From an archaeon (GTDB lineage Archaea; Nanobdellota; Nanobdellia; Woesearchaeales; UBA9642), in assembly GCA_020057295.1 (NCBI GenBank), contig JAGVGF010000003.1:32001-96000 (forward strand): 64,000 nt of DNA, read 5' to 3'. A program made the translations under genes and the position numbers. Shown here piece after piece: positions 14,946 through 29,277 of this stretch (positions are counted from its first letter, which is position 1; each line of letters begins with the position of its first letter). The notes under the pieces are model-generated. The model saw nothing but the letters and a program-made list of their open reading frames with translations, did no database searches and was not told the origin of the DNA.

Positions 14946-16187
14946 TTATTGCTTATTTGTCTTTGTAGAATCTAATTTGACTTTTGTAAAATCTTCTAGT
15001 GATGTTTTCGGAACCCATCTATAAATTCCTTCACTGCTAGATGCCGGTTCATATCTTAAGTATGTCCATCCAACATCTCTATAAAATTTTTTTAAATATT
15101 TTTCAGTTTGTAATAATCCTGCTAATTTATTTACTGTTTCTATGGTTGGAGAATATTTTATAGTGTCTAATTCCTCCCGCAATCCCTTTAATCTCTTAAA
15201 GAATCTATGATATTCCGTAGTATCAGGGTATGATGGGAGTCTGGTTAGTGTTTCGGAAGTTCTTGAATACGCTCTTAATATGTTTAAAGCCTGTTCAGGC
15301 AGAATCTCTATATTTTCTGTCTCTTGCTTTATCCTTCCTATTGCTTTTTCAAAGGATTCTTCTCCATGTCTGTTTGAAAGTGCCAGATTTTCTTGTGATT
15401 CTAATTGAATAGCGTAAACTACATTTAATATTTCGTACGCTTCATCTATGGTTTTATTTTTTTCGGACAGATTATTTACAAAAAGTGTTCCCAAAACAGA
15501 ACCTGTAATTAAAGTGCCGGCTGTTAACGCTGTTAAGGTTTTTCTGTGTCTTTCTTTCCAATTTTCCCACATTCTCTTTCGTAAACTTTTTGTTTTTACA
15601 CTCTTTTTTGGAGCTAATTTTGCGGTTTCTTTATCAGAAATTGTTTTAAGGATGTCTCTGGCCATTCCTAAGTAGGCTTCTGCTTGAGAGTTTATCCATT
15701 CCGATTCGCTTCCTTCTATTGCTTTTTGTGATCCATTAATAATATAGTGCCCTTGACCATGTCCTTTCATATTTCTTATTTGAACCAAGGGACTGGTTGG
15801 TAAATAATTGTGTGCTCTTCTGTGTCTTTCAAATACTGTTTCACCTGTGTCTAGTTTTGGTGCTTCTCGCGTATTTTTTTCTATATCTTTTAAATTTCCT
15901 TTATATGTTCCGTACAAAACTTGTAAAAAAATGTTTAAATTATCTGCAAGATTTTTAGCATCTAATGCAAATTCGGCGATATATCTGCTTCTTTCAAAAT
16001 CTTCATATGATTTGTTGAAGGCAGTATATTTTTGCATTAACGTTTTAGAATCGCTTTTTATTCCGGATAATGACCTAAGAAAATCTATGTTTGTTAAATA
16101 TGTTTGAGAATTTTTGTTAGCTTTAACTCTTTGTTCTATTTCATCTGTTAGCACTTCTATTTCAGCTAATTTTCTTTCTAAGCTCAT
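14946..16187 (-). CDS. Hypothetical protein with central TM helix
   Basis: 413-aa ORF, one hydrophobic segment (LTALTAGTLITGSVLGTLFV). Confidence 0.65.
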   Translation of the reverse strand: MSLERKLAEIEVLTDEIEQRVKANKNSQTYLTNIDFLRSLSGIKSDSKTLMQKYTAFNKSYEDFERSRYIAEFALDAKNLADNLNIFLQVLYGTYKGNLKDIEKNTREAPKLDTGETVFERHRRAHNYLPTSPLVQIRNMKGHGQGHYIINGSQKAIEGSESEWINSQAEAYLGMARDILKTISDKETAKLAPKKSVKTKSLRKRMWENWKERHRKTLTALTAGTLITGSVLGTLFVNNLSEKNKTIDEAYEILNVVYAIQLESQENLALSNRHGEESFEKAIGRIKQETENIEILPEQALNILRAYSRTSETLTRLPSYPDTTEYHRFFKRLKGLREELDTIKYSPTIETVNKLAGLLQTEKYLKKFYRDVGWTYLRYEPASSSEGIYRWVPKTSLEDFTKVKLDSTKTNKQ

Positions 16188-16247
16188 TCTATGGTGTTCT
16201 AGTTATAATTTATAAAGTTGATTATTTTAATCACTGTTTAGTAGCAC

Positions 16248-16281
16248 TATTTTTGTTTTAATCTTATTTTTGTTTTAATCT
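16248..16281. repeat. Tandem 17-bp direct repeat within T-tract region
   Basis: TATTTTTGTTTTAATCT twice in tandem. Confidence 0.6.
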
Positions 16282-16523
16282 TGATTATTTTTTCTTTTTT
16301 TACATTTTTTTACGTTCTCGTCGACAATTTTTTTTATTCTCGTCTATTTTTTTTTATCTTTTTTTTAATGTTTCTGTCTTTTTTTGCTTAAAAGTTATGC
16401 TCACTTGAGCACAAAACGGAACATTTAAATATAAGCCCCACCACTAAAATAACTATTGGTATACAAAAGCGTATACCTAGATACATCCAATTAACTGTTT
16501 ACATCCAATAATCCATAACGAAA

Positions 16524-17342
16524 ATGAACGGCTCCGCAGTATTTGATAGGCTTAATATTACTTACATAGTAGGAATATGGCTCCTCGGCGTGCTCATTTT
16601 CGGTTCACTGTATTTCGGCTTAACATTCACAAATCAACCCCTAATGTACAAAAACGGACCATTAACGAGTGATGTTATTGGTTTAGGAAACAGCCTATAT
16701 TTCAGTTTTATAACTGCATTAACAATAGGATACAACGATATAACACCAGTAGGCTTTGGAAAATTAGCTGTGATATTAGAAGCAATATTTAGTGTAGCCT
16801 TACTAGGATTGTTCGTAGCAAAAATAGTTGCAGTAAAACAAGAAGAACTGTCACAAGAAGTAGAAGAGCTAAGTTTCGAAGAATCAACTAATAGCGCAAT
16901 TTCAGAATTATATATTTTCAGAAATGACGTTAAAAATATTCAAGACAAAATAGTCACAACAAAGAAATTAAGTAACGAAGTAAAAACTTTCGAGCAAACA
17001 TTACCAAACATGCGTTTAGCATTAGAAACTTTAGAACACGCAACAGATAAATTATCAAGCGAACAAAAACAAAATAGTTCATTAAGAGTAGAGCTGATCA
17101 TTAACAGCATAAACTTTTCACTCTCAAGAATGATTGAAATGTTAGAGGCATTCAATCACAAAAAAGCGGATTGGAAAAAAGAGTCTACAACAGCAACAAT
17201 CACCGAATGCGCGAGGATTACACAGAAACTATACGACCAGTACAGTTTACTAAGATCCAATGAGCACTCAGGAACGAAAGTAGCAGAGAAGTTGGACGAC
17301 TTGAATAAGACTTTAGCAACACTGAATGAATCACTAAAATAA
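16524..17342 (+). CDS. Two-TM potassium channel family protein (Ion_trans_2) with C-terminal helical domain
   Basis: TM1, pore helix SLYFSFITALTIGYNDITPVG, TM2; filter reads GYN instead of GYG. Confidence 0.85.
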   Translation: MNGSAVFDRLNITYIVGIWLLGVLIFGSLYFGLTFTNQPLMYKNGPLTSDVIGLGNSLYFSFITALTIGYNDITPVGFGKLAVILEAIFSVALLGLFVAKIVAVKQEELSQEVEELSFEESTNSAISELYIFRNDVKNIQDKIVTTKKLSNEVKTFEQTLPNMRLALETLEHATDKLSSEQKQNSSLRVELIINSINFSLSRMIEMLEAFNHKKADWKKESTTATITECARITQKLYDQYSLLRSNEHSGTKVAEKLDDLNKTLATLNESLK

Positions 17343-18205
17343 GCGATCGAATGTGCTTTGAACTGATTCAACCCTTCAAAATCCAAGTTTTTGGATAACA
17401 ACAGAAGGATATGAAAATACGGTACTGAAAAATTCATGTTGTATAAAGCAAAACTTTGGTTTTATTCCCGAAACGTTTTGAGTGCGAGTTTGACTCTGCA
17501 TTCAATCAGACTTGTATTTTCAAAAATATGTTTAGAAATCGAAAAAATCATGCTGAAGTCAAGTCACTTCGTTTGTGACTTCACCGTTCACATAGTTCAC
17601 GCTGAAGTATTCACGCAATCCTTGACCTCCTGGAGTTAATCTAGGAGGGCCCATTCCATTCAACAAATGTAGTAACAAGAAAACAAGTAATAACTAATAG
17701 AAACAACAAGTAACAACAAAAACGACGAAGAGCGCCGGGAAAAAGAGATAAAAGACAAAGAACATAAAAACCAAGAGAATATTGGTACCGTAACAGATAG
17801 TAAGAATAAAGAAATTTATTCCTAAACACCTAAATAATGCCTAGCTAAAAGGTGTCGAAAAATTGAGGTATAAACCATAATCAAGTCCGCGCAATAGCAC
17901 ATAAGGACTTGATGAAGTTAGCCAGTGAAAAAATATTCACAGAGGAAAACATCTAACAGTGTTTTTCAAAGACAAAACTAGAATAAAGTTTTCAAAACCA
18001 CAACGGCAAAAAAGAAGATTGGGAACTGAGATTGGCGTACAGTCACACAAACACACAACAACGATTGTAACAATCACAAAACCGTCGAGCCACAGAAACA
18101 ATAGAAAACCATAAAACTAGTCGAATATAAGTAACCAGTGAGACAATAATGGTCGAAAAAATCAACTATCGGCACCGCAAGTTAGTCAAATCATCTCCAA
18201 TTATG
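17343..18205 (+). ncRNA. Candidate large structured non-coding RNA / very long structured 3' region
   Basis: About 860 bp with no credible ORF, more than 10 stem-loops, G-U pairs only in + orientation, A-rich U-poor linkers. Confidence 0.45.
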
Positions 18206-18208
18206 TTC

Positions 18209-19069
18209 TTATTCTTTAAATTTAGATAGAATTTCTTCCCTCAATTTGTCAGCTATGGTTTTATTCTTCATCACCATTACTTTGATCTTTGTTTTAAATC
18301 TAAGTATGTCTGCAATTTTTATAAGATCTAATGTTTCTAAGTCTTTTGTACTTTGATAGAATTCTTCTAGTCTTGAGTATATCTCTTCTGGATAGTCATA
18401 TTGAATTATGTATTCTCCGAATACGTTTAAAGCAGTTTTTATTTCAGTCGAATCAGGATTTATCTGATATCTTCCATATTTTCCATAAAATTTCTTTTCC
18501 CACTTATCTAAAACCGTATTTCCGTTGGTTAAATTGTATATTTTTATCTTGTGTAAAAAAACATCTTCCAAAACTGCTTGTTCCATGCCTAGGTGTGCAA
18601 AAACATACCATAAATGTGGTCCATTGAAGAAAAATCTATTATCATCACTCTCTTTCATATTGTATACTAAATCAAAGATTACTTCATTTACAAATTGATC
18701 TGCTAGAATAAGTGTTTCAAATTCGTATGTTGATATTGCTTCCTTTGTTTGTGTAGGTAGACTTTTTCCTCGTTTGTCTCCAGCAAAATAATTTCTCATT
18801 ATTTGATCTGATATTCTTTTTAATTCTAAACTATAATTTTTATCAATGGAGTATGATTTATCTTTTAACGATAGAATTTTTCTTTCAACCATTGCATTAA
18901 GGCTTTTTCTGATTGCTTGAAAACTTAATTCAACATGAAATTCATTTTTTAGTCTATGACATATTTCTCCAATTTTTAACGGATATTCTTTTGCTAGAAC
19001 TAAAAGTATTACATCATGTAGTTGTTTTTTATACTCTCCATATCTAGAATCAATAACTTCTAAAGCCAT
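18209..19069 (-). CDS. Putative winged-helix transcriptional regulator
   Basis: N-terminal wHTH pattern (PLKIGEICHRL...LSFQAIRKSLNAMVERKIL..KDKSYSI) plus C-terminal effector-like domain. Confidence 0.65.
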   Translation of the reverse strand: MALEVIDSRYGEYKKQLHDVILLVLAKEYPLKIGEICHRLKNEFHVELSFQAIRKSLNAMVERKILSLKDKSYSIDKNYSLELKRISDQIMRNYFAGDKRGKSLPTQTKEAISTYEFETLILADQFVNEVIFDLVYNMKESDDNRFFFNGPHLWYVFAHLGMEQAVLEDVFLHKIKIYNLTNGNTVLDKWEKKFYGKYGRYQINPDSTEIKTALNVFGEYIIQYDYPEEIYSRLEEFYQSTKDLETLDLIKIADILRFKTKIKVMVMKNKTIADKLREEILSKFKE

Positions 19070-19198
19070 ATTTGTGCTTAGATGCTTAGATATTTAAACT
19101 TTTTGTATCTATTTAACTTTTAGTTTAATGCCTCTTTAACACAACATTTATATAAAAGTATTCACTTCCTAGTAGTATTATTATTTATAGGGGATAAC

Positions 19199-19936
19199 AT
19201 GAAAAAAACACCATTATTACTAATTTTAGCAGCTCTATTGGCTGGTCAAGTAAAAGCTCAAACTTCACCCGAGACATCTAAAACTAAGCTTGAAACAACT
19301 GTTGTTCAGGATTTCTTTGATCTTTATAGAATGAGAGGATTAAATTTTTCCACTGGTCCAGTTTCTCAAACAAATTTGATTATGAATTATGGAAACCTTG
19401 CAGGAATTGTTCTTGTAAACCATAATTTCGATAGAGGGCATATTGACGAATATGATTTTGTAGCAAGGTACACAGACACTCTTAATGTAAATATTGCTGG
19501 AGCTAAACCTATAGTTTTTGGACAATTCGTTTATTTAGATATGGCGCGTCAACAAGCCGGCAAGTCAAAAGAAGCAGCAGTTGTAGCAACTTTGCCAATA
19601 TCATTAAATTCGAAAATGACTTTAACTCCTACGGTTACAGTAGCTAAAGATTTTGATAAAGGAAAAGGAGAATATCTTGGATTAGGCTTTAGTCAAGATA
19701 TTGCTGTAGATTCAGCATCAGGAATTGCTGCCAATATTTCAGGAGTAGTTGGTTACAATAATAAATATTGGAACTCTACATCAACATGGTCGCATGCAGA
19801 TATTTCTGCGAGAGTTTCCGTTCCTCTCGGAAATGGTTGGACAGCAACACCTAATATAACTTACAGCGGTAGTCTTAACAAAGAGTATTTCTCTAATGCA
19901 ACAGTTGCTGGTTTACAAATAAGTAAACAATTTTAA
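19199..19936 (+). CDS. Secreted beta-barrel-like protein resembling bacterial outer-membrane TorF/MipA-type barrels
   Basis: Sec signal (VKA|Q), YRMRG...PVSQ start motif, alternating amphipathic strands, C-terminal Phe (GLQISKQF). Confidence 0.6.
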   Translation: MKKTPLLLILAALLAGQVKAQTSPETSKTKLETTVVQDFFDLYRMRGLNFSTGPVSQTNLIMNYGNLAGIVLVNHNFDRGHIDEYDFVARYTDTLNVNIAGAKPIVFGQFVYLDMARQQAGKSKEAAVVATLPISLNSKMTLTPTVTVAKDFDKGKGEYLGLGFSQDIAVDSASGIAANISGVVGYNNKYWNSTSTWSHADISARVSVPLGNGWTATPNITYSGSLNKEYFSNATVAGLQISKQF

Positions 19937-22447: not shown

Positions 22448-22564
22448 TTTATTTAAATTTGTATCTAGACTGTGATTTTTATGATAAAAAGAATTATCTA
22501 TTATTTATAAGTGTTGCGGTTTGTTTATCGACGATAAAAGATAAGAAAAAAGGTTTTTTTAGAA

Positions 22565-22816
22565 CTATTTTATATCTGCTCTGCATGTGTCTTTTTCTGT
22601 AACCTTACCGCGTTTATTGCTATCAAATATGCTTTGCATTACAAATATTAATGATTCCTCGTTGGCTTCAACATTCAACTCGCACGACTTAAGATTCATA
22701 ATTTCTCCTGCTACCATTCCTTCTTGTTCAGGATGTTCTTCATGTCTGTATCCTTGCTGTTTTGCCATCCATAATTGCACTTTTGTTACTGTATCACCAT
22801 TGTCTATGCGTGCCAT
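22565..22816 (-). CDS. Hypothetical small protein
   Basis: 83-aa ORF preceded by GGAGG SD. Confidence 0.55.
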   Translation of the reverse strand: MARIDNGDTVTKVQLWMAKQQGYRHEEHPEQEGMVAGEIMNLKSCELNVEANEESLIFVMQSIFDSNKRGKVTEKDTCRADIK

Positions 22817-22824
22817 TTCGCCTC

Positions 22825-22974
22825 CTAATTAATTATTCTACTCTTAACCTGATTTGAATGTACTTTAAACGAACATCCGCAATATACACATCTCTTAATT
22901 TTATCTGTTATACTGCCTGTTTGTGGTTGATAACTCTGAATTTTTTTACATCTTGGACATGATACTTTTAACAT
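22825..22974 (-). CDS. Small Zn-ribbon protein (49 aa)
   Basis: Not in ORF track: MLKVSCPRCKKIQSYQPQTGSITDKIKRCVYCGCSFKVHSNQVKSRIIN; two CxxC pairs. Confidence 0.7.
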   Translation of the reverse strand: MLKVSCPRCKKIQSYQPQTGSITDKIKRCVYCGCSFKVHSNQVKSRIIN

Positions 22975-22980
22975 AATAAA

Positions 22981-29193: not shown

Positions 29194-29277
29194 GCGGGGA
29201 TACCAAAGTGGCCAAATGGGGTGGACTCAAAATCCTCTGGCTTAGTGCCTTCGTGGGTTCGAATCCTACTCCCCGCA
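29194..29277 (+). tRNA. tRNA-Leu(CAA)
   Basis: Acceptor GCGGGGA/TCCCCGC + discriminator A, D arm, anticodon loop CT-CAA-AA, long variable arm, GGTTCGAATCC; CCA not encoded. Confidence 0.93.

Follow-up and report, generated by a model that had tools for sequence, protein, structure and literature searches.

A conserved structured RNA behind a variant potassium channel gene in one genus of small-genome Woesearchaeota

What fills the space behind the gene for a variant potassium (K+) channel in a small-genome woesearchaeote? The stretch of DNA analyzed here, hereafter the window, comprises 64,000 nucleotides (nt; C1:32001-96000) of a genome that totals 1.2 Mb in 6 contigs and is rated 100% complete; between the plus-strand open reading frame (ORF) of the channel at 16524-17342 and a convergent minus-strand ORF at 18209-19069, it contains a gap at 17343-18208 that is free of ORFs. 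A first-pass annotation, made from the sequence alone, had called this gap the largest in the window and had proposed that it encodes an undescribed large archaeal non-coding RNA, or a structured 3' untranslated region (UTR), built of consecutive hairpins and perhaps transcribed together with the channel. As judged by eye from a list of ORFs of at least 90 amino acids (aa), the gap is indeed the largest (the runner-up, at 22448-22980, has ~533 nt), and each of its six frames is interrupted by 12-20 stop codons of mixed kinds. The plus strand is A-rich, with 358 A and 198 T among 863 bases and an AT skew of about +0.4. The answer to which our analysis leads is that the gap holds a new RNA family, one that has no match in Rfam and is neither RNase P RNA nor the RNA of the signal recognition particle (SRP); the element is conserved, non-coding and structured, is read from the plus strand and is strictly linked to the channel gene. 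In the reading that we favor, at a probability of roughly 60%, this structured plus-strand RNA would be made as a 3' extension of the channel mRNA and would have a function tied to the channel.

The evidence for structure is comparative and comes from 20 distinct sequences, namely 13 genomes of the genus and 7 new copies from metagenomes. On the alignment of the 13 genome copies, RNAalifold predicted 33 pairs in six helices for the 3' domain of the element, with compensatory changes in 20 pairs. Among these genomes, 89.9% of the alignment cells were paired vs. 28-48% when the partners were slid by 1-3 columns, both sides had changed in 21 of the 33 pairs vs. 3-10 when slid, and shuffled controls reached the observed value in 0 of 500 trials on four measures and in 1 of 500 on the fifth. 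Projected onto the 7 metagenome sequences, which had been held out, the same structure paired 216 of 231 cells (93.5%) vs. 33-47% when slid; over all 20 sequences the corresponding figures were 91.0% vs. 32.9-44.9%, with double changes in 21 of the 33 pairs and none of 500 shuffles reaching the observed value on any of the five measures. The pairs are thus kept through compensatory changes in homologues, as is generally asked of a structured RNA, and we consider it almost certain that the element is one. The 33 pairs also disclose the strand, since they comprise 78 G-U cells vs. 32 A-C cells and include two U-G pairs that are invariant or nearly so (20/20 and 19/20 sequences). A terminal run of 5-9 T is present in 18 of the 20 sequences, and no consistent hairpin was found in the tail; taken together, the G-U pairs and the terminal oligo-T argue for a plus-strand RNA that ends at a terminator of the archaeal type. 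With regard to its extent, the first-pass boundaries (17343-18205) located the element correctly and stopped a few bases short of its 3' end, which reaches ~18217.

Folding of the single sequence gave -174.5 kcal/mol for the plus strand (z = -4.16, none of 20 shuffles being as stable), and a z of -1.73 for the minus strand, a difference that likewise favors the plus strand. When the element was divided into thirds, with 100 shuffles each, z was -1.43 for the 5' part, -1.22 for the middle and -3.04 for the 3' domain. We regard these thermodynamic data as suggestive only, because 1 of 41 background windows of 300 nt (mean 0.01, standard deviation 1.33) was as low as -3.04; it is the comparison with relatives that lifts the fold above chance.

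Upstream of the 3' domain, conservation is arranged in modules. The hairpin at the stop codon has four pairs, with both sides changed in 4, 2, 10 and 10 of the 20 sequences. In the helix-plus-hairpin module that follows, all 5 pairs of the outer helix are formed in 13 of 13 genomes, and the 6 pairs of the inner hairpin comprise 3 that are invariant and 3 with double changes (in 3, 1 and 9 of the 20 sequences). Further on, the 12-nt stretch has its last 9 bases identical in 20/20 sequences, its first 3 being missing in one; a block-level fold pairs part of it instead with the 3' arm of the neighboring hairpin, without covariation. A candidate pseudoknot, also without covariation, is the pairing in the whole-element consensus fold of 17349-17352, in the loop of the stop-proximal hairpin, with 17609-17612 at the 12-mer. 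That hairpin (17626-17648) forms at the homologous place in all 20 sequences, with energies of -13.4 to -20.4 kcal/mol. Block alignments with MAFFT yielded 0 consensus pairs for 17436-17512 and 5 for 17600-17662, because the arms of the hairpins were misaligned; folding sequence by sequence rescued only the latter block. The middle part is otherwise a linker that is rich in A and C and varies in length.

Within this linker, or in the apical insert of the helix at 18027-18078, we noticed an 11-nt purine-rich motif that is present with at most one mismatch in 15 of the 20 sequences, 8 times in the former place and 7 times in the latter, the two sites being mutually exclusive; one genome (G012) has an extra 1-mismatch copy elsewhere, and 0.46 matches would be expected by chance in 20 shuffled sequences. 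The retention of a single copy, at either of two sites, suggests that the motif serves for docking or binds protein, and also that linker and 3' domain act in concert.

Those stems of the first-pass annotation that we checked, at 17358-17371, 17373-17408 (enclosing 17381-17396), 17478-17505, 17626-17648 and 17880-17913, are all where it had placed them in the sequence, and their fate in relatives differs. The stems at 17373-17408, 17626-17648 and 17880-17913 and the pairing of 18027-18034 with 18071-18078 are conserved and covary; the hairpin at 17478-17505, at -12.6 kcal/mol here, is weak in most relatives, and the stem at 17561-17581 belongs to a lineage-variable insert found only in some of them, in one to three copies. 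Stems described within 17770-17855 and 17926-17941 fall in stretches that, as judged by eye without a formal count, align poorly among relatives. The insert itself, which precedes the 12-mer and is homologous to 17545-17600, contains 1-3 tandem hairpin units (L009/G008, L005/G009 and L018/G006); the unit resembles the start of the conserved motif, which suggests local duplication.

That the element is non-coding is borne out by its pattern of change. Column entropy by phase in the 3' domain (0.998/0.996/0.961) displays no three-base rhythm, vs. 1.246/0.975/0.811 over the final 420 nt of the channel gene as a control, and 300 of 412 gap runs in the element are not multiples of three, vs. 8 of 38 in the channel. 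An all-vs-all comparison of frames of at least 25 aa revealed similarity only as expected from conserved DNA and no kept frame. Stop-codon reassignment and a hidden ORF were rejected because of the number and mixed kinds of stops in every frame, and a protein-coding gene or pseudogene was rejected on the grounds that there is no open frame and no codon periodicity and that the indels do not come in threes. The first-pass proposal of a large non-coding structured RNA or 3' UTR is therefore supported by the missing frame, the missing periodicity and covariation that extends to the 7 independent sequences; of the checks that it had suggested, an Rfam scan and covariation among homologues came out in its favor, and the folding score against shuffles was suggestive.

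Linkage to the channel gene is strict. By motif scan and alignments, each of the 13 genus genomes was found to carry a single copy of the element directly behind this gene, as a stretch of 665-1067 nt that is poor in ORFs. A pattern scan of metagenome contigs recovered 9 further loci, all 9 with the C-terminus of the channel encoded immediately upstream; of these, one exactly duplicates a genome copy, another shares 97.8% identity with the window, and 7 have 73.5-78.8% identity to the nearest known copy. BLAST with the channel gene plus the gap matched 11 of the 12 other genus genomes and, in 26 other genera, yielded only a 27-nt match (E 6.9e-4) in one genome, to the downstream-gene part of the query; with the gap alone, a search of 19 genomes of the family matched 10 of the 12 genus genomes and gave one 34-nt match at chance level. 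Blocks of the gap are 68-88% identical between relatives, about equal to the coding region. Behind a channel homologue of 30% identity, from a different genus of the family, the next ORF comes immediately and leaves no gap, which suggests that this channel subfamily and the RNA appear together.

To delimit the distribution, we built a covariance model (R1) on 17864-18036. It matched every one of the 13 genus genomes, its training set, strongly and once (103-154 bits) and reached a best E of 0.007 in the 6 genomes that represent the family's four other genera. When 151 genomes sampled from the order and 151 from the phylum were searched, only weak matches of 23-25 bits turned up beyond the genus, 2 in the former sample and 3 in the latter, with G034 in both; the G034 match lies inside a 273-aa ORF. 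In total, about 290 other genomes of the phylum produced no convincing match outside the genus. A pattern scan of 185,579 species genomes returned 5 loci, all of them, according to their contig coordinates, in genus genomes already included, and would overlook divergent copies because three conserved motifs were demanded. Phage and plasmid collections contained no match to the element, and complements of eight conserved motifs, sought in the genome itself as potential targets in trans, occurred at about chance numbers. As far as these searches extend, we infer that the element is restricted to one genus of small-genome Woesearchaeota.

Does the element belong to a known family? The 4227 models of Rfam 15, which include OLE, GOLLD, ROOL, HEARO, group I/II introns, self-cleaving ribozymes and C/D small RNAs, were used at the gathering cut-off and at E <=10. 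At the gathering score, the window contained only a tRNA (29194-29277) and the gap nothing; at E <=10, the best match in the gap was mir-1422 (25.3 bits vs. a cut-off of 60), and two sub-threshold C/D matches lay outside the gap at 18220-18275. The loci of 10 relatives gave no match at E <=1. Archaeal RNase P RNA (RF00373) and archaeal SRP RNA (RF01857) were rejected as identities of the element, the genome's single match to the former being at C1:216184-216494 (125.4 bits) and the match to the latter on another contig (C2:11868-12140, 135.7 bits). These results agree with the first-pass annotation, which had recognized no RNase P, SRP or intron core, and the presence of the two archaeal RNAs in the same genome supports its assignment to the Archaea. 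A full-text literature search, without subscription journals and supplements, found among the papers listed no large structured RNA of DPANN or Woesearchaeota and no archaeal example, so that the RNA is also, as far as could be tested, undescribed. As a separate observation, the tRNA (84 nt, 51.2 bits) exceeds its 71-position model, which a long variable arm or an intron may explain. The coordinates of the element and of the channel gene are collected in Table 1.

Table 1. Features of the RNA element and the channel gene (positions in the window)
Feature	Position	Strand	Remarks
Whole structured RNA element	17343..18217	+	875 nt here; 665-1067 nt in relatives
Stop-proximal hairpin	17342..17357	+	First base is last base of stop codon; covariation
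5' module	17373..17408	+	Nearly invariant 5-bp helix around 6-bp hairpin with variable loop
12-nt stretch	17610..17621	+	Nearly invariant; unpaired in whole-element consensus fold
9-bp hairpin	17626..17648	+	9-12 bp in relatives; stem sequence differs between species
11-nt purine-rich motif	17737..17747	+	Middle linker or apex of last long helix, never both
Closed 3' domain	17873..18154	+	~285 nt, six helices, 33 pairs; covariation, 20 sequences
Closing helix	17873-17878 with 18149-18154	+	Arms ~275 nt apart; double changes at 5/6 pairs
Helix	17880-17888 with 17905-17913	+	Capped by 17889-17892 with 17897-17900
Helix	17917-17926 with 18134-18144	+	
Hairpin	17947-17952 with 17959-17964	+	
Helix	18019-18022 with 18082-18085	+	
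Helix (long-range pair)	18027-18034 with 18071-18078	+	Conserved with covariation
3' tail	18155..18217	+	Oligo-T end in relatives; here T-rich ~18207-18218, overlapping end of convergent gene
Variant two-transmembrane K+ channel gene	16524..17342	+	272 aa; helical C-terminal bundle (Pfam, AlphaFold2)
Canonical archaeal TATA-box-like octamer	16424..16431	+	Inferred promoter of whole unit; ~100 nt before start codon
Perfect 7-bp hairpin	16458..16477	+	At inferred 5' end of channel mRNA; ~26 nt after TATA octamer

The channel protein itself matches Pfam Ion_trans_2 (E 1.6e-11), and its translation has an asparagine in place of the second glycine of the selectivity-filter signature. The AlphaFold2 model (mean predicted local distance difference test score, 85.8) shows a confidently modeled, all-helical C-terminal bundle of ~170 residues, and 54 relatives in the database share 32-99% identity. 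A Foldseek comparison of the bundle with solved structures found no significant match, the best being a fungal lipid-binding helical bundle (E 0.0039). An RNA-binding role of the bundle was rejected on this basis, the translin-like matches (TM-scores 0.26-0.33) being weaker than that best one and not significant.

On its 5' side, the TATA octamer recurs in the three relatives whose printed leader reaches far enough (G007, G011 and, in part, G005), the 7-bp hairpin was seen in the leaders of 11 of the 13 genus genomes (not in G002 and G010) and is also listed as terminator-like on the minus strand, and all 13 genomes have near-identical sequence over the 13 bases that precede the start codon. 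An Rfam scan of the leader gave no match. From its sequence, the 5' side of the channel gene looks like a regulated leader. This 5' side (16424-16523) also has repeated short C-rich words and no obvious Shine-Dalgarno sequence before the start codon. Upstream of the promoter, the stretch at 16240-16400 is extremely T-rich, with long T runs and a repeated ~17-nt word (near 16249-16285), and divergent from the channel gene lies a 413-aa ORF (14946-16187) with no Pfam match at E <=0.01.

How would the RNA be produced? The only canonical TATA box that we saw is the one upstream of the channel gene; the junction of coding region and RNA showed none. The first conserved module follows the stop codon at a distance of 15-34 nt (13 genomes), and no run of at least 5 T occurs within the first 45 nt of the element in any of the 20 sequences. 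A hairpin that begins on the last base of the stop codon, combined with a sole canonical TATA box in front of the channel gene, points to co-transcription, and judging from this anatomy the RNA is probably made together with the channel as a giant structured 3' extension. In the mechanism that we propose, the polymerase would initiate at the TATA-box promoter, ~100 nt ahead of the start codon, traverse the 819 nt of coding sequence, continue into the RNA and terminate at the oligo-U tract. The product would be modular, comprising the hairpin abutting the stop codon, the helix-plus-hairpin module, the single-stranded 12-mer with its covarying hairpin, the A/C-rich linker and the closed 3' domain. 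It would act as a folded RNA, most likely within a ribonucleoprotein with putative protein partners and perhaps after processing, and its function would be tied to the channel: either the RNA may control the channel mRNA, or it may partner the membrane protein as OLE RNA does OapA.

Data from RNA libraries bear on this proposal. Parts of the stretch occur in five runs, two of which, each from a different study, are RNA libraries. One contains a 537-nt contig that covers 17804-18208 with 23 differences and 2 gaps and ends at 18208; the other contains a 151-nt contig over 17364-17495 (3 differences) together with short contigs over 17172-17315, and in both libraries these may be carried-over DNA. 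We take the contigs as weak support for expression; uncovered stretches and contig depths at the locus were not used as evidence.

Several points weigh against the favored reading: 1) the 13 genome copies fit the structural model by construction, and the shuffle controls overstate significance because all sequences come from one genus, a weakness to which the slid-partner and held-out tests are less subject; 2) the consensus structure of the 5' and middle parts is limited to three modules, with no predicted pairs in the block at 17436-17512, and as single sequences these two parts fold no better than background; 3) a clean terminal oligo-T tract is missing in this genome and in G009, and many copies contain internal stretches of 5-10 consecutive T, so that some transcripts may terminate early; 4) the RNA data consist of assembled contigs, which carry no information on starts, ends, strand or level and may stem from DNA, and none of the RNA-library contigs examined spans the junction of coding region and element; 5) a promoter may lie within the channel coding region, the last 75 nt of which display no TATA-like motif conserved among relatives on inspection by eye only; and 6) on inspection the C-terminal bundle of the channel is acidic, and no RNA-binding fold matches it significantly, and for these two reasons direct binding of the RNA by the channel is unsupported.

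Beyond the element, the conserved neighbor is gyrA, which is convergent and follows the element within ~140 nt in G007, G001 (and its identical metagenome copy), G004, G006, G010 and M058 and after ~860 nt in M056, i.e., in at least 7 distinct relatives. In the window, two genes, one for 286 aa on the minus strand and one for 245 aa on the plus strand, occupy 18209-19936 between the RNA and gyrA. They look like an insertion because most relatives have the convergent gyrA straight after the RNA; the 286-aa gene is inserted in this genome, its strain variant and G002 (50% identity in G002), and the 245-aa gene in this genome and its near-identical metagenome strain variant.

The alternative that survives best, possible in our view and yet well short of probable, is a separate gene for a non-coding RNA, driven by a promoter of its own within the 3' end of the channel coding region. 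Such an RNA would act in trans on something unrelated to the channel, adjacency being kept only through promoter overlap or through inheritance within one genus. The RNA does have an oligo-T end of its own; all sequences belong to one genus, in which gene order is largely inherited and gyrA is a conserved neighbor as well; and the C-terminal domain of the channel shows no RNA-binding fold. However, the end of the coding region holds no conserved TATA-like motif, the structure begins at the stop codon itself, it is the channel gene that is preceded by a strong canonical TATA box and by a leader that is conserved, and the homologue in the other genus (30% identity) has no gap behind it.

A second alternative keeps the anatomy that we favor, contiguous with the coding region and served by one terminator, and assigns to it a purely cis-acting role, with a 3' UTR that stabilizes, localizes or times the translation of the channel mRNA and no separate function of the RNA. 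We consider this improbable, given that the element, at 665-1067 nt, can exceed the 819-nt coding region that it would serve and is furnished with a closed six-helix domain, invariant loops and a relocatable 11-nt motif, whereas known stabilizing 3' structures need less than such a domain and movable motif; moreover, conserved pairing between leader and element was not found, the best duplex sites varying from species to species.

Size, structure and narrow distribution would also suit mobile or selfish RNA, such as an intron, an element carrying a ribozyme or the guide RNA of a transposon nuclease, or, at the DNA level, a site such as a replication origin. All of these are highly improbable, as evidenced by a single copy per genome that is always in the same place, by the lack of any adjacent nuclease, reverse transcriptase or initiator gene, of any Rfam match to an intron, ribozyme or guide RNA and of any match in the phage and plasmid collections, and by the G-U pairs, which would be A-C on the other strand and argue for RNA. 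A guide RNA of the IscB/TnpB type in particular was rejected, the neighbors being the K+ channel and, in relatives, gyrA, with no nuclease gene adjacent. Least credible of all is a decayed gene or small protein gene on either strand, for although minus-strand open frames reach 126 aa in some relatives and translated blocks are similar between species, long frames are expected on a strand that is T-rich and hence poor in stop codons, the frames are not kept (the longest minus-strand one in this genome's element has 62 aa, and the frames there have 12-14 stops each), three-base periodicity is absent, and the paired columns covary.

We therefore return to a structured RNA made as a 3' extension of the channel mRNA as the reading on which to build. 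The element, at ~0.9 kb, is longer than the gene it follows and is conserved about as well as that gene; that a reduced, symbiont-type archaeon with 1.2 Mb and almost no spare DNA keeps an RNA of this size argues for an important role. Its strict pairing with an atypical K+ channel provides a concrete and testable handle on this role. Confined to one genus, with 20 distinct sequences, the element is of limited generality and at the same time makes for a clean new family for Rfam-type curation and structural work. To our knowledge, large structured RNAs of unknown function, such as OLE, GOLLD, ROOL and raiA, are known almost only from bacteria.

Among the systems with which the element can be compared, archaeal RNase P and SRP RNAs are large structured archaeal RNAs as well, and the 3' domain described here, at ~285 nt, is of similar size; both, however, were found elsewhere in the genome, and the gap matches neither. 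Regulatory RNAs derived from 3' UTRs share the contiguity with the end of a coding region and the use of the gene's terminator. These are typically tens to a few hundred nt long and consist of simple hairpins, in contrast to an RNA that is longer than its gene and contains a closed multi-helix domain. GOLLD and ROOL resemble the element in being large ornate RNAs that emerged from comparative genomics, with a narrow or patchy distribution and no known function. They are often phage-associated and located near tRNA genes, whereas the element occurs once, on the chromosome, in a fixed place behind one gene, and the phage and plasmid collections and Rfam gave no match to it. A passage of a recent preprint describes GOLLD and ROOL as forming RNA-only assemblies (bioRxiv 10.1101/2024.12.08.627333).

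The closest analogue is the bacterial OLE RNA with its partner OapA, the resemblance being one of kind only. Both RNAs are large (~600 nt for OLE vs. 665-1067 nt), intricately folded and endowed with conserved loops, both have an unknown biochemical function, and both are encoded beside a membrane-protein gene. The position of OLE is upstream of oapA, that of the RNA described here downstream of the channel gene; OLE is bacterial (Bacillota) rather than archaeal, no Rfam match in sequence or structure connects the two, and partner proteins are known for OLE, while binding to the channel is here a matter of analogy. According to passages in two reports, OLE localizes to membranes through a protein partner (PMC3413148, PMC9723947). 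By analogy, one may speculate, as an unlikely but attractive extension of our reading, that the 0.7-1.1 kb RNA, either released from the channel mRNA or attached to it, takes part in a membrane-associated ribonucleoprotein with the channel or other proteins. If this is true, the element would represent the first large 'ornate' RNA class of the Archaea, and a counterpart of the OLE particle that has arisen independently in one DPANN genus.

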